A stretch of DNA of 26,681 nt, taken from a virus. Its lineage: Duplodnaviria > Heunggongvirae > Uroviricota > Caudoviricetes. Position numbers and translations under genes: made by a program. This document shows positions 1,834-15,036 of this stretch, piece after piece. The first letter of the stretch is position 1. The number at the start of each line of letters is the position of its first letter. The notes beneath the pieces are model-generated. The model saw only the letters and a program-made list of their open reading frames with translations. It was not told the origin of the DNA and did no database searches. The stretch lies in the IMG/VR virus record IMGVR_UViG_2718217859_000002, one strand, 5' to 3'.

Positions 1834-1930
1834 CTTTATACTCTCCTTATTCGTTTCAATGAAAGTAGTTTTGATCATAAAACGATCATTTTCAATATGT
1901 TGCACGATACGTTTTATGGTTGAGAGCACT

Positions 1931-2017
1931 AAATGATCAAAAATGATTAAAGGGCTATTAAAAGGTGATTAAGACTGATTAAAAGGTATTAAAGGCGATT
2001 AAAACCGATTTAATTTA
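1931..2017. repeat. iteron-like array, about 7 copies of [G/T]ATTAAA(A)GG at 10-11 bp spacing
   Basis: Direct reading: tgattaaaggg, tattaaaagg, tgattaagac, tgattaaaagg, tattaaagg, cgattaaaacc, gatttaattt. Confidence 0.6.
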
Positions 2018-2243
2018 GGTGCGTCCGTCACCATCGTTGAACACAAAGATCAAGCCTCCCGATCTGATGCAGGCACAAATATGAAATATCTTATTGATTT
2101 ATAAGTAAATTTATTTTATTTAAGCTGTTCACAAATGATTTGTCTTGTCAAGAAATTTATTTTCGGCAGATGAAAAATAGCCAATAAATAGCGATAAATG
2201 GTCTATATATGCCTGAGTATATAAAGATCAGTAGGTTACAGAA

Positions 2244-2262
2244 TACACTTTGCTAAAGTGTA
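2244..2262. promoter_or_regulatory. perfect 8-bp-arm palindrome TACACTTT-gct-AAAGTGTA (operator-like)
   Basis: Inverted repeat read directly. Confidence 0.4.
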
Positions 2263-2647
2263 TCGAATCTGGGTTGTATTGCATTATAAGTGATAATAAT
2301 TCTTATTATTGAATTGTATGACAAATGATTATTCTCTTTGAGATGTGCACGAGTGAACATTCGTTCAACAAATGATAGAACGTTTATTGAGCAACAATTT
2401 TGCAGTGATGCGCTATATGCCGCATTACATAAGGCTTTGCTGATGATAATGTAAAAGTGAAGAAAGTAAGAATTGCACTTTGAATCTACCTTTCATTGCA
2501 TTTTTTAGTAGGGAATTACACGGAATAAGCTATGAATATTCTATGATTTACACGAGATATTCTTGCTGTTTAATTTCGGCTTTGGAGATCAGGCATTCGC
2601 AAGAATACGCTAATGCGTTGCCTGAAAAGCCATTGCACATAATAGAG

Positions 2648-2971
2648 GTGAGCGTATAGCGAACTATCAATGTGATCATTGCACGAATGATAATGAGTGG
2701 ATATAGATTCTATATATCGTTAGATTGTAGTTTGATAGTTAATGTGTAATGTAGATTGTATGAGCGTATAGCGAATGTTAGTTAGATCAACAACAAACTA
2801 ACCTTTAAATCTCTTTTATCTTCTCATAGATATGGCTATGCGTAGCAACCGAAGGTTAGCCATTAATCTATGCAGCCGTAAGGCTGTTTTGCATGTAATA
2901 GTTGTTTGTTGTTGGTAGTCGTTAGACAGTTACCAATTTATAGATCAGAGATAGATGTGAGCGTATAGCGA
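2648..2971. repeat. three dispersed copies of GAGCGTATAGCGA (2648-2662, 2761-2774, 2957-2971)
   Basis: Exact 13-14 nt direct repeats in an ORF-free AT-rich region. Confidence 0.6.
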
Positions 2972-3065
2972 TACACTAATCATAACAATATCTTCTTACT
3001 TTTTAGTTAGTTAGTTGTTAGTAGGTTATTGTTATGCGCGCTATTAGCGCATGTATAAAGGTATC

Positions 3066-3296
3066 ATTTTTATCTAAAGGGCTTTAGACATTTTTGATAC
3101 CTTTTTCATCTCTAAAAAAGTGTAATTTTTATCTAAAGGGGCTTTAGACATTTTTTACACCTTTTTCTGTGCAAGACACTTACCAGTGTGCACAATACTT
3201 ATGCTTTTCTAAAGCCGGGAATTTTTAAGTTTGATTGATCAATTGTTAACTTTAAAAGTTACTTTTAACAATCACTTAGACGATCTAAAGCCGCAA
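3066..3296. promoter_or_regulatory. operator cluster: two 40-bp direct repeats each with palindrome TCTAAAG(G)GGCTTTAGA (3073-3088, 3132-3148) plus TCTAAAG half-sites near 3208 and 3286
   Basis: Read directly; lies upstream of the plus-strand operon starting at 3520. Confidence 0.55.
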
Positions 3297-3437
3297 TTAA
3301 CATAATATAAGTTGACATGCAAGCACTTTTTACCATATAGTGCGGCCCCCTATCTATAAATCACACATTTTACCACTTGTCAATACCATAAATAACCTTA
3401 TAAAACAGGTGCTTAGTTTAGTATTGATAAATATTTA

Positions 3438-3466
3438 TTGACTAATACTATAAGATGGTGTATATT
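3438..3466 (+). promoter_or_regulatory. sigma70-like promoter TTGACT-N17-TATATT
   Basis: Hexamers at 3438-3443 and 3461-3466, about 55 nt upstream of the 3520 start; AGGAGG SD at 3507-3512. Confidence 0.45.
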
Positions 3467-3519
3467 AGCATTAGGGAATTGCATTCCGTAGTAACCAACA
3501 ACAACCAGGAGGTAAATAA

Positions 3520-3770: not shown

Positions 3771-3932
3771 ATGGATATTCGATTCAATCCAGAAGTATTT
3801 GCAGAATTACGCACGATGGCAACACAACGAGGTATTAGTATTCCCGCGTTAGTTAACGTCATACTTAAAGAAAAAATCATCCTACATCAAGAGGAAAAAT
3901 ATGATAAAGACGATCAAACGAAAAATAGTTAA
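3771..3932 (+). CDS. ribbon-helix-helix (Arc/CopG-like) DNA-binding protein (53 aa)
   Basis: Below ORF-track size cutoff; translated by hand: MDIRFNPEVFAELRTMATQRGISIPALVNVILKEKI... fits a strand-helix-turn-helix pattern. AAGGTG SD upstream. 3' end overlaps next gene in another frame. Confidence 0.4.
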   Translation: MDIRFNPEVFAELRTMATQRGISIPALVNVILKEKIILHQEEKYDKDDQTKNS

Positions 3933-5429: not shown

Positions 5430-5588
5430 ATTGCCTGTAGTAAATAGCACGAATTGCTAAAGAAAAACTATTGACTATCTATAAACTTTATGATACTCAT
5501 AAGTATTGAGGTGCATACAACCTCAAAAGTAACGTATATAGAGTATCCCTTTATACATATATCATACAACAACCACAAGGAAAAGCAA

Positions 5589-6371: not shown

Positions 6372-6735
6372 TAAGAAAAACGTAATAACAACTATTGGCG
6401 AAGCATGTGATCAGTATGCGTTAAACAATCCTCGCAAATATAACTACGAGCATGATGCACAACCAGGCGAAGAATTGATCTTTATACTTGAAGAACCAAG
6501 CCCAGAATTAACAGACGAAGAATTATCACTCATTCAAAGTATGGACGGTGTTTATTTTAATCCACGTCCACGCAAAACAACGGTTATAGATTCCAGTCTT
6601 CTAAAAAGATGGCAGTGTTTGGGGTTTTCAGACATGGCCCATTTTAGGGGGTATATGTCAATGAATAGCCTTCAATATGCAGGCGTGCGAGAAACCGAAT
6701 TACTTCTGCTTGATAAAGTAAACATTGACGATTAA
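6355..6735 (+). CDS. hypothetical protein (126 aa)
   Basis: GAAGGGGAAG SD-like upstream of ATG. Confidence 0.5.
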   Translation: MSKQKGKKNVITTIGEACDQYALNNPRKYNYEHDAQPGEELIFILEEPSPELTDEELSLIQSMDGVYFNPRPRKTTVIDSSLLKRWQCLGFSDMAHFRGYMSMNSLQYAGVRETELLLLDKVNIDD

Positions 6736-6776
6736 CAGCGTTTGCTGAATATAAACCTTAACAAAAGGAAAATAAA

Positions 6777-6998
6777 ATGATTAACAAAGCAATTTTAGAG
6801 ACAACCACTTTTCACGATCTTAAACTTCTTTCTGAATGCTTCATAAGCCTGATTGAACGAGCACAGGAAGAAAACGATCTCGGTTTACTCGATGATATTA
6901 TAGACAACATTGCAACTTATAAAATCCCGCTCACCATTGCTATGAAGAAAGCACGCGAAGCACAACAACAATTAGAACAATTAGAGGAAGTGGCATAA
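6777..6998 (+). CDS. hypothetical protein (73 aa)
   Basis: ORF with AAGGAAAA upstream. Confidence 0.45.
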   Translation: MINKAILETTTFHDLKLLSECFISLIERAQEENDLGLLDDIIDNIATYKIPLTIAMKKAREAQQQLEQLEEVA

Positions 6999-7306
6999 TG
7001 AGCACTACACACAACGTAACTATTCAGATGATGGATCTGATTATTTCTTTACAGAAGGCAGTTAATTCGGCTCTGACGTTTCCAACTGAGCTAACCATTG
7101 CACAGGCTGTTATTAACCTGGAATCGACGCGGGAAGCACTTGAACTACTTATTGCAGCGTGCGAACAATCCGAAGGTGCACAGGTTGAAGCTGACGAATT
7201 GTCTAATCTGATCATCGTTATTCATGACACCACTGAAATCATGAAAGAAGCGGTAGCAGACCTGCAACCACTCATTAATGAACTAATCGACAAGGCTAAC
7301 AACTAA
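6998..7306 (+). CDS. hypothetical acidic protein (102 aa)
   Basis: ATAATG overlap coupling with upstream ORF. Confidence 0.45.
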   Translation: MSTTHNVTIQMMDLIISLQKAVNSALTFPTELTIAQAVINLESTREALELLIAACEQSEGAQVEADELSNLIIVIHDTTEIMKEAVADLQPLINELIDKANN

Positions 7307-7515
7307 TGACAAAAACTAAACGTGTGCGCCTTCTGGCGCTCACAGAAGAAGGGAAAGCGGGTAATTGTTTCACAGTAGGTAAAGTGTATACCGGCTTACT
7401 CGACACTTACACCCGCCTGATGCACGTAACCGATGATAACGGTAACGATCAAACAATCGTTTTAGATGGTAATTGCGTATTTGGTGAATGGGAACTGACA
7501 ACCGAAAAGAATTGA
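7306..7515 (+). CDS. hypothetical protein (69 aa)
   Basis: TAATG overlap coupling. Confidence 0.45.
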   Translation: MTKTKRVRLLALTEEGKAGNCFTVGKVYTGLLDTYTRLMHVTDDNGNDQTIVLDGNCVFGEWELTTEKN

Positions 7516-7534
7516 AAAAACTTTGATTTAACTA

Positions 7535-7563
7535 TTGACTTTATAACAGAAATGTTATATAAT
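7535..7563 (+). promoter_or_regulatory. near-consensus sigma70 promoter TTGACT-N17-TATAAT
   Basis: Hexamers at 7535-7540 and 7558-7563 with a 17-nt spacer. Confidence 0.5.
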
Positions 7564-7569
7564 AAGAAG

Positions 7570-7810
7570 TGTAGGGGAAAGAATCTAAAACAGGTGTTAG
7601 CTGGCGTTAATCCTTCTCCCGATTTTAATCCTACACGAAAGCGGGGTAGACCTCAAGGGGTCGCGCCCTATCTAACCTGCCTCGCTTTCCCTTTACCAGT
7701 TTTTTTAGAAATTGTTTCCCTCGTTAATAGTTTCATATATTTTCCTTATTGCTTTATCAAAATTGTGTCTTAAGAATGCAGGGGCTACGGATTTGGCCCC
7801 TCATCTTTTT
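7570..7810 (+). ncRNA. candidate small non-coding RNA (promoter to terminator, no convincing ORF or SD)
   Basis: Predicted start about 7570; GC stem pairing 7634-7645 with 7681-7691 followed by a T run near 7700; second terminator at 7781-7810. Confidence 0.3.
7781..7810 (+). terminator. rho-independent terminator
   Basis: GGGGC-loop-GCCCC followed by TCATCTTTTT. Confidence 0.55.
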
Positions 7811-7957
7811 AACCAACTGCGAAGCATGAAACACTTTCTAAAAACACTGTTTACAGTGTCTATAAACCCCGTATAAACAAATAACGGTGTATATTGTTTC
7901 TTGACAACAATTCTACTAAGCCAAAAGCTGAATATGTTTTTTGTTTGTTGGTGTTTA

Positions 7958-8146
7958 TTAAGGTGCCAATCTTAGAACGCTGAAAGCGTGGATGATCCCC
8001 GAAATCATCTCGGCACCGCCTCCTATTAAAATGAGAATCCAAAAGGTTTGAAAGTTAATAGTAGTTCCTAAAAGTCTGATCGATGCATCCACATTGTGAA
8101 AGACAGCGATTAGCCATCGCACGAATAACAGGTTTATAGATTCCAA
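7958..8146 (-). CDS. small hydrophobic protein (62 aa), TTG start
   Basis: Perfect AGGAGG SD 8 nt upstream of TTG (minus strand); hydrophobic sequence with GGG turn. Confidence 0.3.
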   Translation of the reverse strand: MESINLLFVRWLIAVFHNVDASIRLLGTTINFQTFWILILIGGGAEMISGIIHAFSVLRLAP

Positions 8147-8310
8147 AGGGGGCGACCTCCTAAGCGCCTACTCCCTGTAAGCCTGTTATTCAACCCCTCA
8201 AGGGTATATAACAATAAGCAATCTTATTCTTATATGTCCTCCTCTTTAAGTTCATATAACTGCGATTTAGTAACACTCTATAACATCCTTCAAATGTTGT
8301 ATTCATAAAG

Positions 8311-8340
8311 CCGGAAGCTTTCCCCTTCCGGTTTTATTTT
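8311..8340 (+). terminator. rho-independent terminator just upstream of structural operon
   Basis: CCGGAAG-ctttccc-CTTCCGG followed by TTTTATTTT. Confidence 0.6.
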
Positions 8341-8382
8341 GTCAGCACTAAACAAGAATGTTAGAAAAAAGGTAAAGCAACA

Positions 8383-8598
8383 ATGCAAAATCTCATTCTA
8401 AAGAATGGTAATGAAGAATTGATTATCACTAATGAAGCATTCAACGCTACGGCTTATATGTTGGGAATCACTCCCACAGAATTGAAAAAACATTGTGATA
8501 AGCTTTTTAAGTCTGCTGATGAACAGAAACCTACTATGCAGGATCTGATTAAAGCAAAAGCAGAACAAATCAAACAATCCAAAAAAGGAAACAATTAA
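8383..8598 (+). CDS. hypothetical small protein (71 aa)
   Basis: AAGGTAAAG SD upstream; first gene of structural cluster. Confidence 0.45.
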   Translation: MQNLILKNGNEELIITNEAFNATAYMLGITPTELKKHCDKLFKSADEQKPTMQDLIKAKAEQIKQSKKGNN

Positions 8599-8601
8599 TT
8601 T

Positions 8602-8973
8602 ATGGCTATTATTAATATGAGCGATCTGTTTCCAGTTCGCAAATCATTTACCGATATCGTTTCATATGCAACTGATGAGTTCGGTTGTGTGCAATCTTTT
8701 ACCGTTGATCTGGCGGTTGATGTTGAATGTGGCGATCTGATTACCAGTGACGGCGCTGAATATGTAAGCGGCGGCGATGTTCTTGTCGTTGTGTCTGATG
8801 CGGTATCCGCTGGCGACGCTAAAACCGTTAACGTGCTGCGTAGCAATGCCGGACTGGTTTGCATCAAATCCGATGCTCTGAATGTTGAAGGCGCTGTGAA
8901 AGAAGCCGCTATTGCTGCCCTGGCTGCAAAAGGTTTCCAGATGGCTGGCTTTAATACTGTATTCACATCTTAA
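8602..8973 (+). CDS. putative head decoration-like / minor virion protein (123 aa)
   Basis: Beta-rich V/D/A/G/S composition; sits immediately upstream of the capsid-like gene (decoration-then-capsid order as in lambda D-E). Homology not verified. Confidence 0.4.
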   Translation: MAIINMSDLFPVRKSFTDIVSYATDEFGCVQSFTVDLAVDVECGDLITSDGAEYVSGGDVLVVVSDAVSAGDAKTVNVLRSNAGLVCIKSDALNVEGAVKEAAIAALAAKGFQMAGFNTVFTS

Positions 8974-8991: not shown

Positions 8992-10020
8992 ATGATTATT
9001 GGTAATGAATCCGTCGATCTGGCTCCGCTGTTTAGTCTGCACGACTCTCGCAACTTCCTGTTAACTTCTCTCGACTTTACTGATCCGGTAGGTGTGAGTT
9101 CTCATAAAGTGGCTGTTAGCCAACTGGTGGAAACTAACGAATCTCTGTTCAACAAAGAAACCTCTCGTTTCTCTTCTGAACATAACGTGACTAAACGTGA
9201 ACAGGGTAAAGAATTTTTAGTAGAGATCCCCTACTTCCTGCGTGAAGATATGATTAAGCCGCAAGACGTGCAAGGCAAACGTAAGCCAGGCGCTACCGTT
9301 GAAGAAACTCTGACAGATATCTACGCGGAATATGTTGCTAAGCACCACATTGCTTTCCAGCGTACTAAAGAGAGCGTGCTGGCTGCTTCCCTGTTTAGTG
9401 GTCGCACCTACACCCCTAAAACTGACGATGTGCTGATCCAGTGGGGCGATCTGTTCAGTGCTGTTCCGATGACTGCAACCATCGACGCATCAAGCACCAC
9501 ACCTTCTATGGTGTTCCAGCAATTCGATCAGATGCATACAGACGTTATCACTAAAGCACAAAGCCAGGCGGCTGCTGTAGAGCGTATCGTTGTATTCTGT
9601 AAACCTGCCGCTTTCAACGCTATCCGTTACAGTGCTGGCATGGTTAACGCGTTCCAGTATGCAAGCCCTACCGACGACGCAAACATCGTTTATAGCGTGC
9701 GCTCCCTGCTGCCAGGTGTGACTACCTTCACTATTCCAGGGACTAATATCGATATCGTCAAAGTTACCGATCCGCTGCTGCTGGCGCATATGACTTCTGA
9801 TGCGGTGGCTGTTCCGAAGTTCGCTAAAGGCTCTAACGTCTATCAGAACATTTTCGGCGCTCCGTCTTCAACGTTCGACCTGCTGAATTCTGGATCGGCT
9901 GAATATTACAGCTATGCATTTAGCCCAGCACGTAACGACGCTGTAAACGTAGTTACCGAGAATAGCCAGATGGTTGTAAACCACGGCGTAGGCTTCACTG
10001 TACAGATCACAGTAGCGTAA
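8992..10020 (+). CDS. putative major capsid protein (342 aa; lambda gpE-like size and architecture)
   Basis: Size, position and a 30-aa helix-prone segment (TLTDIYAEYVAKHHIAFQRTKESVLAASLF) compatible with an HK97-fold spine helix; strong SD. Inference, not search-based. Confidence 0.5.
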   Translation: MIIGNESVDLAPLFSLHDSRNFLLTSLDFTDPVGVSSHKVAVSQLVETNESLFNKETSRFSSEHNVTKREQGKEFLVEIPYFLREDMIKPQDVQGKRKPGATVEETLTDIYAEYVAKHHIAFQRTKESVLAASLFSGRTYTPKTDDVLIQWGDLFSAVPMTATIDASSTTPSMVFQQFDQMHTDVITKAQSQAAAVERIVVFCKPAAFNAIRYSAGMVNAFQYASPTDDANIVYSVRSLLPGVTTFTIPGTNIDIVKVTDPLLLAHMTSDAVAVPKFAKGSNVYQNIFGAPSSTFDLLNSGSAEYYSYAFSPARNDAVNVVTENSQMVVNHGVGFTVQITVA

Positions 10021-10170: not shown

Positions 10171-10362
10171 ATGAACACACAAAACAACAATCCCGTTGAA
10201 ATCTTGAAAGCTGTTTCCACCTTACCGGAAGATATTCTGAATATCTCTCAAGTATGCAAGTTTTTAGGGATCTCTAATACCGCTGTACGTCAAAGAATCT
10301 TTGCTACTGGCTGTTCCGCTATGGAAGCAGTGCAATATTACGTAGCAAAACAAAATAAGTAA
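10171..10362 (+). CDS. small HTH DNA-binding protein (63 aa)
   Basis: ISQVCKFLGISNTAVRQRIF helix-turn-helix pattern. Confidence 0.45.
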   Translation: MNTQNNNPVEILKAVSTLPEDILNISQVCKFLGISNTAVRQRIFATGCSAMEAVQYYVAKQNK

Positions 10363-13657: not shown

Positions 13658-13821
13658 AACAAACATTTCTCAACGTCTACTAAAGTCCATCAAACCCACG
13701 AATATCAAGCCTTCCAGGCATTTTCATAGTTTATTAACGTCTACTCACAACTACCAGAATCTACACACAGAAGTGTATAGTAATGCGTATAGGACAAAAT
13801 TTATTTTTTGGAGCTATACAC

Positions 13822-15036
13822 ATGCTGCTTTCAGACCTTGCCATCAGGCGCGCGAAGCCGAAAGAAAAGGCTTATACACTCAATGACGGTAACGGGCTTT
13901 CGTTGCTCATTGAGCCGAACGGTTCGAAAGGGTGGCGACTGCGCTACAGGTTTGCAGGAAAGCCCAAAATGTTGTCGTTGGGTGTGTACCCTGATGTGTC
14001 TCTGTCTGATGCCAGGGCGGCAAGGGATGAGGCTAAAAGGCTTCTTGCTGGTGGTATAAATCCAAGTGAGGCCAGAAAAGCCCAAAAGCGAGAACAGGCG
14101 AGCAAATTTGGCAATACTTTTGAGGGTATTGCTCGCGAATGGTACGAAAAGCGGATCGACAGGTGGTCATCGTCATACGCCGAGGAAATGATCGAGACGT
14201 TTGAAAAAGATGTTTTTCCGTACATTGGCGGTAGGCCGATCGCAGAAATTAAGCCGATGGAATTGCTGGCGGTTCTTTCCCGTCTTAATGACCGTGGTGC
14301 GACTGAAAAATTGCGTAAGGTTCGCCAGCGATGCGGCGAGGTGTTCCGGTACGCAATCATCACCGGACGCGCCGAATATAATCCAGCCCCTGACCTGGTG
14401 AGCGCATTTGCTCCACATAAAAAAGAGCATTACGCCTATTTGAAGGCCGACGAACTGCCGGAATTTTTCCGCGTTTTTAATACGTACACCGGAAGCCAGA
14501 TCGTCAAACTGGCAATGCGGCTATTAATTCTGACAGGTGTCAGACCCGGGGAATTACGGCAGGCAGAATGGCAGGAGATCGATTTTGATAATCGTTTGTG
14601 GGAAGTGCCTAAAGAACGAATGAAGATGCGCCGTCCGCATTGTGTGCCATTACCAGAACAGGCGATAAAAATACTGGAGCAGTTAAAAAACATGACAGGC
14701 CAGTATCAGTTTATTTTCCCCGGTCGTATTCACCACAGTAAGCCAATGAGTGAAATGGCGATGAATGTGCTCATTCGTCGTATCGGCTATGCCGGGCGCG
14801 TTACTGGTCATGGATTCCGGCACACCATGAGCACCATTTTGCATGAGCAGGGCTATAACACCGCGTGGATAGAGACGCAGCTCGCACACGTCGATAAAAA
14901 CTCAATTCGTGGCACATACAACCATGCGCAATATCTGGATGGTCGCCGGGAGATGCTCCAGTGGTATGCCGACTATATGGATTCGCTCGAGCATGGCGGA
15001 AATGTGGTGCATGGTGAGTTCGGAAAATGCGGGTGA
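13822..15036 (+). CDS. int: P4-type tyrosine integrase of element 2 (405 aa)
   Basis: N-terminal LSDLAIRRAKPKEKAYTLNDGNGLSLLIEPNGSKGWRLRYRF arm-binding domain typical of P4/CP4-57-type integrases; C-terminal HGFRHT...Y; GGAG SD. Track ORF begins earlier at 13783 without SD. Confidence 0.9.
   Translation: MLLSDLAIRRAKPKEKAYTLNDGNGLSLLIEPNGSKGWRLRYRFAGKPKMLSLGVYPDVSLSDARAARDEAKRLLAGGINPSEARKAQKREQASKFGNTFEGIAREWYEKRIDRWSSSYAEEMIETFEKDVFPYIGGRPIAEIKPMELLAVLSRLNDRGATEKLRKVRQRCGEVFRYAIITGRAEYNPAPDLVSAFAPHKKEHYAYLKADELPEFFRVFNTYTGSQIVKLAMRLLILTGVRPGELRQAEWQEIDFDNRLWEVPKERMKMRRPHCVPLPEQAIKILEQLKNMTGQYQFIFPGRIHHSKPMSEMAMNVLIRRIGYAGRVTGHGFRHTMSTILHEQGYNTAWIETQLAHVDKNSIRGTYNHAQYLDGRREMLQWYADYMDSLEHGGNVVHGEFGKCG

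Follow-up and report, generated by a model that had tools for sequence, protein, structure and literature searches.

A promoter and a probable structured, terminator-containing leader ahead of the capsid genes of a satellite-like Escherichia coli island

A promoter that lies in a gene-free gap and is followed by terminators raises the question of what is made from it and whether the product acts by itself or serves the genes further downstream. Such a promoter occurs in the DNA stretch analyzed here (the window; 26,681 nucleotides, IMG/VR virus record IMGVR_UViG_2718217859_000002), and a first-pass annotation, made from the letters of the window without database searches, had read it as the orphan promoter of a candidate small RNA of roughly 140 to 240 nt.

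The island and its gene-free gap

The window contains an integrase-bearing, satellite-like island of ~12 kb, which is a chromosomal element of E. coli. The island was detected in about 64 of 5,426 complete E. coli genomes (62 to 64, ~1.3%), STEC lineages included, and in these genomes is flanked by a tRNA-Gly on one side and by the ETT2 region on the other. Carriers include E. coli MA11, Ec-FL1-1X and O26:H11 FWSEC0001. A scan of genome contigs with the capsid protein returned one locus only. RefSeq annotates all of the genes of the island as hypothetical, with the exception of the integrase/recombinase genes and the capsid gene. Comparison of the DNA with 50,697 phage records, in both near and distant similarity modes, produced no match, and no description of the island or its RNA was found in the literature.

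The leftmost gene of the island is a truncated integrase-like gene on the minus strand (1255-1929). Between this gene and the early promoters lies a repeat-rich segment of ~1.5 kb without credible ORFs (1930-3500), in which TGAGCGTATAGCGA(A/T) occurs three times (at 2649, 2761 and 2958), a unit of ~60 nt is duplicated (3054-3107 and 3113-3167) and short GATTAAA-type repeats are present at 1944-2012; these repeats may be iteron/origin-like or regulatory. Two strong promoter-like sites precede the early gene block, namely, TTGACA-18-TATAGT at 3312-3341 (11/12 consensus matches) and TTGACT-17-TATATT at 3438-3466 (10/12). A further site, TTGACT-17-TATTAT, was observed at 1464 in the relative L016, ahead of the gene equivalent to that at 5490 in the window. 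The early block consists of small plus-strand genes, one of them for an Arc/RHH-like protein of 53 aa (3771-3932), and also encodes a DEAD-like helicase of 494 aa in which an HTH occupies the C terminus. The last of the early genes, adjoining the gap, encodes a 69-aa protein for which the AF2 model was of too low a confidence for structural searches (pLDDT of 58), so that its fold is not assigned.

The gap itself extends over 867 nt (7516-8382), of which the first-pass annotation had described the first third only, and separates the early genes from a capsid module, confirming the first-pass placement of the locus between early and structural genes. The first gene after the gap encodes a 71-aa protein (8383..8598, plus strand) and is followed by a gene for a 123-aa protein, the Phage_cap_E major capsid gene (8992-10020) and genes for proteins of 63 and 613 aa, after which comes the island's own tyrosine integrase gene (406 aa, minus strand). 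Variants of the 71-aa protein (65 to 73 aa; L014 1655-1852, L016 3816-4016, P0003 and P0004) bear the RefSeq name "ACP S-malonyltransferase," which is implausible for a protein this small. Directly after the island's integrase in the window, a second integrase, of the P4 type (Arm-DNA-bind_3, Phage_int_M and Phage_integrase domains; 13783-15036 onward), opens a different element; a glycoside hydrolase gene and ETT2 come after the island in other E. coli genomes. The best tblastn matches of the capsid were head proteins of myoviruses of ~150 kb from E. coli, Klebsiella and Pseudomonas, at 24 to 26% identity. The absence of a close phage relative and the nature of these nearest matches hint that the helper phage, if there is one, is not lambdoid.

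No ORF of at least 25 codons was conserved across relatives on either strand of the gap. The one long ORF, of 73 codons (7552..7773, plus strand), starts inside the promoter spacer and is not preceded by an SD, as the first-pass annotation had noted in rejecting it as a gene. Of 11 relatives, only the near-identical L002 has this ORF unbroken; stop codons or frameshifts disrupt it in the other 10. A PHROG search with its product was negative, and it is not a gene. A leader peptide was also considered and discarded, there being no conserved small ORF; a 16-codon ORF at 7832 was frameshifted in relatives.

The leaders of the relatives fall into three diverged types: type A, comprising the close relatives of the window; type B, comprising L016, L149 and L150; and clade 2, comprising L008 and L017-L028. 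All three have a common plan of a promoter, an untranslated leader, one or more terminators and then the capsid genes. In clade 2, in which the capsids are about 76% identical, the unit is shorter, with a promoter, a 235-nt leader, one terminator and the genes. Types A and B have only blocks of sequence in common, namely, the promoter with its palindrome, the 5′ end of the transcript, both arms of a helix bracketing the first terminator, the loop of a long hairpin (H3), a palindromic hairpin at 8202-8239 and a short motif before the ribosome-binding site.

A conserved promoter, two terminators and a bracketing helix

The promoter, TTGACT-17-TATAAT (7535..7563, plus strand), matches the sigma-70 consensus at 11 of 12 positions and has an A/T-rich tract upstream. 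The predicted start of transcription is at about 7569-7571, in agreement with the start near 7570 of the first-pass annotation, whose promoter call is upheld. By chance, 0.6 sites with at least 11 of 12 matches would be expected in a window, and two were seen; a match of this quality is, therefore, not significant by itself, and the functional argument is one of conservation. Among 12 distinct close relatives, the -35 element was invariant and the -10 element was always TAnnnT, while the spacer and flanks varied. The same pattern of hexamer conservation was detected in type B and in clade 2 and, hence, in three diverged lineages in all. No other plus-strand site with at least 9 of 12 matches was present in the region from 6500 to 8961, so that this is the sole promoter-like site before the capsid genes in a simple consensus scan, which is of a kind that non-sigma-70 or activator-dependent promoters downstream of the first terminator would escape. 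A TTGACA string at 7899 was examined as a second promoter and rejected, since it has no -10 element, its spacer is variable and it is mutated in L013 and L014.

A palindrome, TATAACA-N4-TGTTATA (7542..7559), lies within the spacer and -10 element of the promoter and is a candidate operator. Four of the six copies of TATAACA in the 26.7-kb window fall in the 867-nt gap, and the TAAC..GTTA core of the palindrome was retained in every type A and type B variant. Palindromes of this kind, in the promoter as well as deeper within the leader, are candidate repressor sites, for which two small proteins of the island, the RHH-like one of 53 aa and an HTH-like one of 63 aa (10171-10362), are candidate ligands.

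Transcripts from this promoter would encounter an intrinsic terminator, T1, at 7772..7810 (plus strand), with a core at 7780-7801 followed by CATCTTTTT, giving an RNA of ~240 nt. The extended stem (7772-7807) has a predicted dG of -16.7 and is invariant in type A; the tail contains five U residues only. The terminator placed by the first-pass annotation at 7781-7810 is this one. A second intrinsic terminator, T2 (AAAGCCGGAAG-CUUUCCC-CUUCCGGUUUUAUUUUG; 8305..8341, plus strand), had been missed by a simple terminator scan. Its stem is also invariant (dG of -16.5), and it lies 42 nt ahead of the first gene of the capsid module and was aligned to the terminator of FsrA. The scan found no plus-strand terminator between the early promoters (3312 and 3438) and T1. 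In type B, unrelated terminator hairpins occupy the positions of both T1 and T2, which is the clearest sign that termination itself has been under selection.

T1 is enclosed by a 22-nt inverted repeat (7697-7718 and 7828-7849, plus strand) whose arms are 91% complementary. The 5′ arm includes a T run that the first-pass annotation had interpreted as part of a terminator, while the 3′ arm lies beyond T1 and, hence, is transcribed and can pair only when T1 has been read through. A duplex of 20 to 23 bp, with predicted energies of -19 to -24.5 kcal/mol compared to about -6 for shuffled sequences, was predicted in 11 of 11 variants from two leader types and was present in both MFE and consensus folds. 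Changes in the arms were compatible with pairing: an A-to-G change in the 3′ arm of L015 and of type B produces a G-U pair, and a U-A pair is exchanged for C-G between L016 and L149/L150.

RNA structure along the leader

Two stem-loops were predicted in the 5′ third of the leader. Stem-loop 1 (7570..7635, plus strand) forms the 5′ end of the transcript and is closed by a UGUAGGG...CCUACA helix that recurs in type B; it exhibited two compensatory pairs and several broken pairs. Stem-loop 2 (7637..7689, plus strand; GAAAGCGGGGUAG...CUGCCUCGCUUUC) is GC rich, every one-sided change within it preserves pairing (GU/GC and UA/UG) and a different GC hairpin takes its place in type B. Covariation is thin in this part of the leader due to the closeness of the relatives, and a comparison of types A and B shows poor conservation of the 5′ third apart from the transcript 5′ end. 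Of the two hairpins for which the first-pass annotation had suggested a check of conservation, the T1 stem and the pairing of stem-loop 2 were maintained in type A, and different hairpins take their places in type B. The "GC stem plus T run" described in that annotation at 7634-7710 corresponds to stem-loop 2. The hairpin is real, but the T run begins ~10 nt past its end and is broken up in most relatives (AGTGATTTTTAG), so that the two together do not make a canonical terminator. An RNA of ~140 nt is, hence, an unlikely product of this locus, whereas the upper limit of the proposed range, ~240 nt with an end at T1, is supported. A helix between the 5′ end of the transcript and the loop of T2 was also considered and discarded, this 5′ segment being the most variable part and showing no covariation.

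Conservation of the type expected for an RNA extends 570 nt past T1, and this downstream part contains six compensatory pairs and many G-U-compatible changes. A three-way junction (7962..8017, plus strand) is formed by a GGUGCC...GGCACC helix around two hairpins; one of these, at 7977-7990, has two compensatory pairs in L012 and a loop that alternates between GAAA and UUUC. More compensatory pairs occur near 8040 and 8090. Hairpin H3 (8123..8191, plus strand) has a stem of 17 bp and a conserved loop motif, UCCAAAGGG; an A-U pair is replaced by C-G in L014, a U-G pair by C-G in four sequences and two G-U pairs are compatible with the plus strand only. The stem of H3 is wholly different in type B, in which the loop motif is nevertheless retained. 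A hairpin or palindrome, ATATAACAATAAG-CAAT-CTTATTCTTATAT (8202..8239, plus strand), is conserved in types A and B and contains one of the TATAACA copies.

The fold of the whole leader had a z score of -6.95 for the plus strand versus -3.81 for the minus strand, and that of the type B leader of L016 had a z score of -9.7. Two segments, 7590-7700 and 7960-8260, were more conserved than the flanking protein genes. The presence of RNA-type conservation and of the 3′ arm of the bracketing helix beyond T1 indicates that this terminator is read through at least sometimes and that the longer transcripts matter.

The only leader sequence common to all three lineages is (U)CCUCCU(C)UUAAG, present at 8238-8252 in the window, at about 3675-3690 in L016 and at about 5226-5240 in L008. 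This string looks like the 3′ end of 16S rRNA (anti-SD) and, hence, could mask a ribosome-binding site.

The search of Rfam covariance models that the first-pass annotation had suggested did not place the RNA in a family, nothing credible being obtained in any leader type for any family at gathering or permissive thresholds. Searches for other known elements were likewise negative for tRNA and tmRNA in the window (ARAGORN) and for the RfaH ops element, GGCGGTAGnnTG, within 7516-8382 with up to two mismatches. A degenerate pattern of the promoter plus TAGGGG matched 120 stretches in viral contigs, all of them chance matches except for one already known, and the exact 5′-end motif had no matches in these contigs.

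The leader as a proposed switch and its relation to known systems

On balance, these sequence features are best explained if the 7535 promoter is the late promoter of the capsid module and 7570-8382 is its untranslated, structured, terminator-gated leader of ~810 nt, a reading to which we give somewhat better than an even chance. The combination of a sole promoter-like site with the lack of a terminator from the early promoters to T1 points to the control logic of a late operon. While the promoter, the non-coding nature of the gap, the terminators, the RNA structures and the conservation of all of these are features of the DNA, the regulation of termination at T1 and T2 is what we infer from them. 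Host RNA polymerase would start near 7570 and normally halt at T1 (~7810), yielding the ~240-nt RNA, and polymerases escaping T1 would halt at T2 (~8341). The capsid genes would be switched on only when both stops are overcome by an antitermination factor or condition, and such a factor might be encoded by the island or come from a helper phage. In read-through RNA, the arms at 7697-7718 and 7828-7849 would form a duplex of ~22 bp around T1 that could plausibly undergo RNase III-type processing, similar to lambda sib/tI, with the TATAACA-type palindromes perhaps adding a layer of repression. The ~240-nt RNA is best read as the terminated product of the leader, by analogy to the 6S RNA of lambda.

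The orphan small-RNA gene of the first-pass annotation is too narrow a description of this locus: the promoter is the only one before the capsid genes, RNA conservation continues well past T1, one arm of a conserved helix lies beyond T1 and the arrangement of promoter, leader, terminators and capsid genes recurs in diverged relatives. A free-standing RNA of ~240 nt (7570-7810) that acts in trans by pairing with mRNAs of the island, host or helper, with the sequence beyond T1 being a separate element, is in our estimation unlikely. The strong, conserved promoter and strong, conserved terminator, separated by sequence without coding potential, constitute a layout typical of a dedicated small-RNA gene, 7590-7700 is very conserved and the first gene of the capsid module has, around its SD and start codon, sequence complementary to segments 7691-7703 and 7740-7756. 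This complementarity is, however, A/U rich and was not found in type B by eye. Between types, moreover, it is the function of the terminator and the bracketing helix that have been conserved rather than the 5′ third; the T1 tail has its five U residues only, and covariation of the kind seen in RNA persists beyond T1 in the absence of a second promoter and of an Rfam match. A trans-acting role of the short RNA is possible and would be compatible with the leader role. Improbable, in turn, is an immunity mechanism of the P4 CI, P1 C4 or IsrK type, in which a fragment processed from the leader would base-pair with leader repeats and force early termination. The layout resembles that of P4 PLE, and UCUAAAAC is present twice (7584-7591 and 7838-7846), with both copies complementary to 7700-7710 and with CUAAAAGC at both places in type B. 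The complementary stretches are, however, short and A/U rich, most type A relatives have UCGAAAAC as the 5′ copy, resulting in weaker pairing, and the 3′ copy comes after T1 and, hence, cannot promote termination at T1 in cis. The Rfam C4 and isrK models gave no match at the gathering threshold in the window, at an E value of ≤10 in 7400-8500 or at an E value of ≤1 in L016, L008 and L149.

An element acting at the level of DNA, such as a cos or pac packaging site or a set of operators, with the promoter and terminators just insulating early from late genes, has a similarly small likelihood. An island that is to be transferred requires a packaging site, and the gap, which directly precedes the head genes, has a concentration of TATAACA palindromes and contains GGGGGCGACCTCC (8146-8158), a string in the H3 loop that is conserved in type A and resembles the cohesive-end sequence of lambda. 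This cos-like string is replaced in type B, however, the capsid is unrelated in sequence to lambdoid capsids and the G-U-compatible and compensatory changes in the stems fit a plus-strand RNA only. Parts of the gap may have roles of this kind alongside that of a leader. Least probable by far is that promoter- and terminator-like strings have arisen by chance in a spacer that has no function and is decaying; a single promoter match of 11/12 is within expectation for a window, but the gap exceeds its flanking genes in conservation and the hexamers, terminators and helices have been kept in three lineages encompassing about 70 genomes.

A more far-reaching version of the leader reading, to which we attach a rather low probability, is that the RNA represents an undescribed class of long cis-regulatory RNAs tying the capsid operon of a satellite to a helper-phage or stress signal. 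Polymerase would then pass both terminators only once modified, the sib-like duplex around T1 would be processed to give a translation-ready mRNA, the terminated 240-nt RNA might feed back on the system and the island would represent a capsid-encoding satellite of a new kind, with its nearest capsid relatives in virulent myoviruses of ~150 kb. If the leader is a switch for the capsid genes, its few parts (a promoter, two terminators and one bracketing helix) would offer a compact and testable means of studying how the island senses a helper phage or induction, and a conserved, structured RNA of ~810 nt without a counterpart in Rfam would be added to those known.

The closest parallel to a terminator-gated leader is the late unit of lambda, in which the PR′ promoter is followed by the 6S RNA leader, the tR′ terminator and Q-mediated antitermination. 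As in lambdoid PR′ units, a strong, constitutive-looking sigma-70 promoter is located between early and late genes, a short non-coding transcript (~200 nt) would run to an intrinsic terminator and the late genes, having no promoter-like site of their own, would need read-through. The leader of the island differs from PR′-6S-tR′ in being four times longer and strongly structured and in having two terminators. The promoter spacer was seen to contain a palindrome and nothing recognized as a Q-binding element. No -10-like TAnnnT pause hexamer was seen on reading 7564-7600, and no Q-like or N-like protein was found by Pfam and PHROG searches among 20 proteins of the window (those of the island and two at the window edges); a Q encoded by the helper is possible. 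The bracketing duplex has a counterpart in lambda sib/tI, in which an RNase III site forms only in read-through RNA; in both cases, the terminator lies inside a longer duplex that can form only after read-through. Unlike sib, which follows a gene at its 3′ end, the duplex of the island is in a 5′ leader, and additional sequence is present between its arms, which are separated by about 110 nt.

The put site of HK022 is a cis-acting antiterminator RNA with two stems, which binds the polymerase that is transcribing it and, with no need of a protein factor, suppresses terminators further on. Stem-loops 1 and 2 are similarly adjacent, one base apart, and upstream of terminators, a likeness in shape only; they are about twice as large as those of put and poorly conserved between types A and B. 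In P4, PLE is a strong constitutive promoter followed by a long, untranslated and structured leader, terminators and then genes. The island has in common with P4 PLE/CI, P1 C4 and Salmonella IsrK a strong promoter and a long, untranslated and structured leader that includes terminators, but in the island these are upstream of capsid genes and not of replication or antirepressor genes, and the complementary copies within the leader are short and A/U rich. Most likely, then, the logic of a terminator-gated late leader is a known one, while the RNA is unclassified and the element that carries it uncharacterised; if it is merely a terminated leader, the island has placed an ordinary late-operon design in a new setting.
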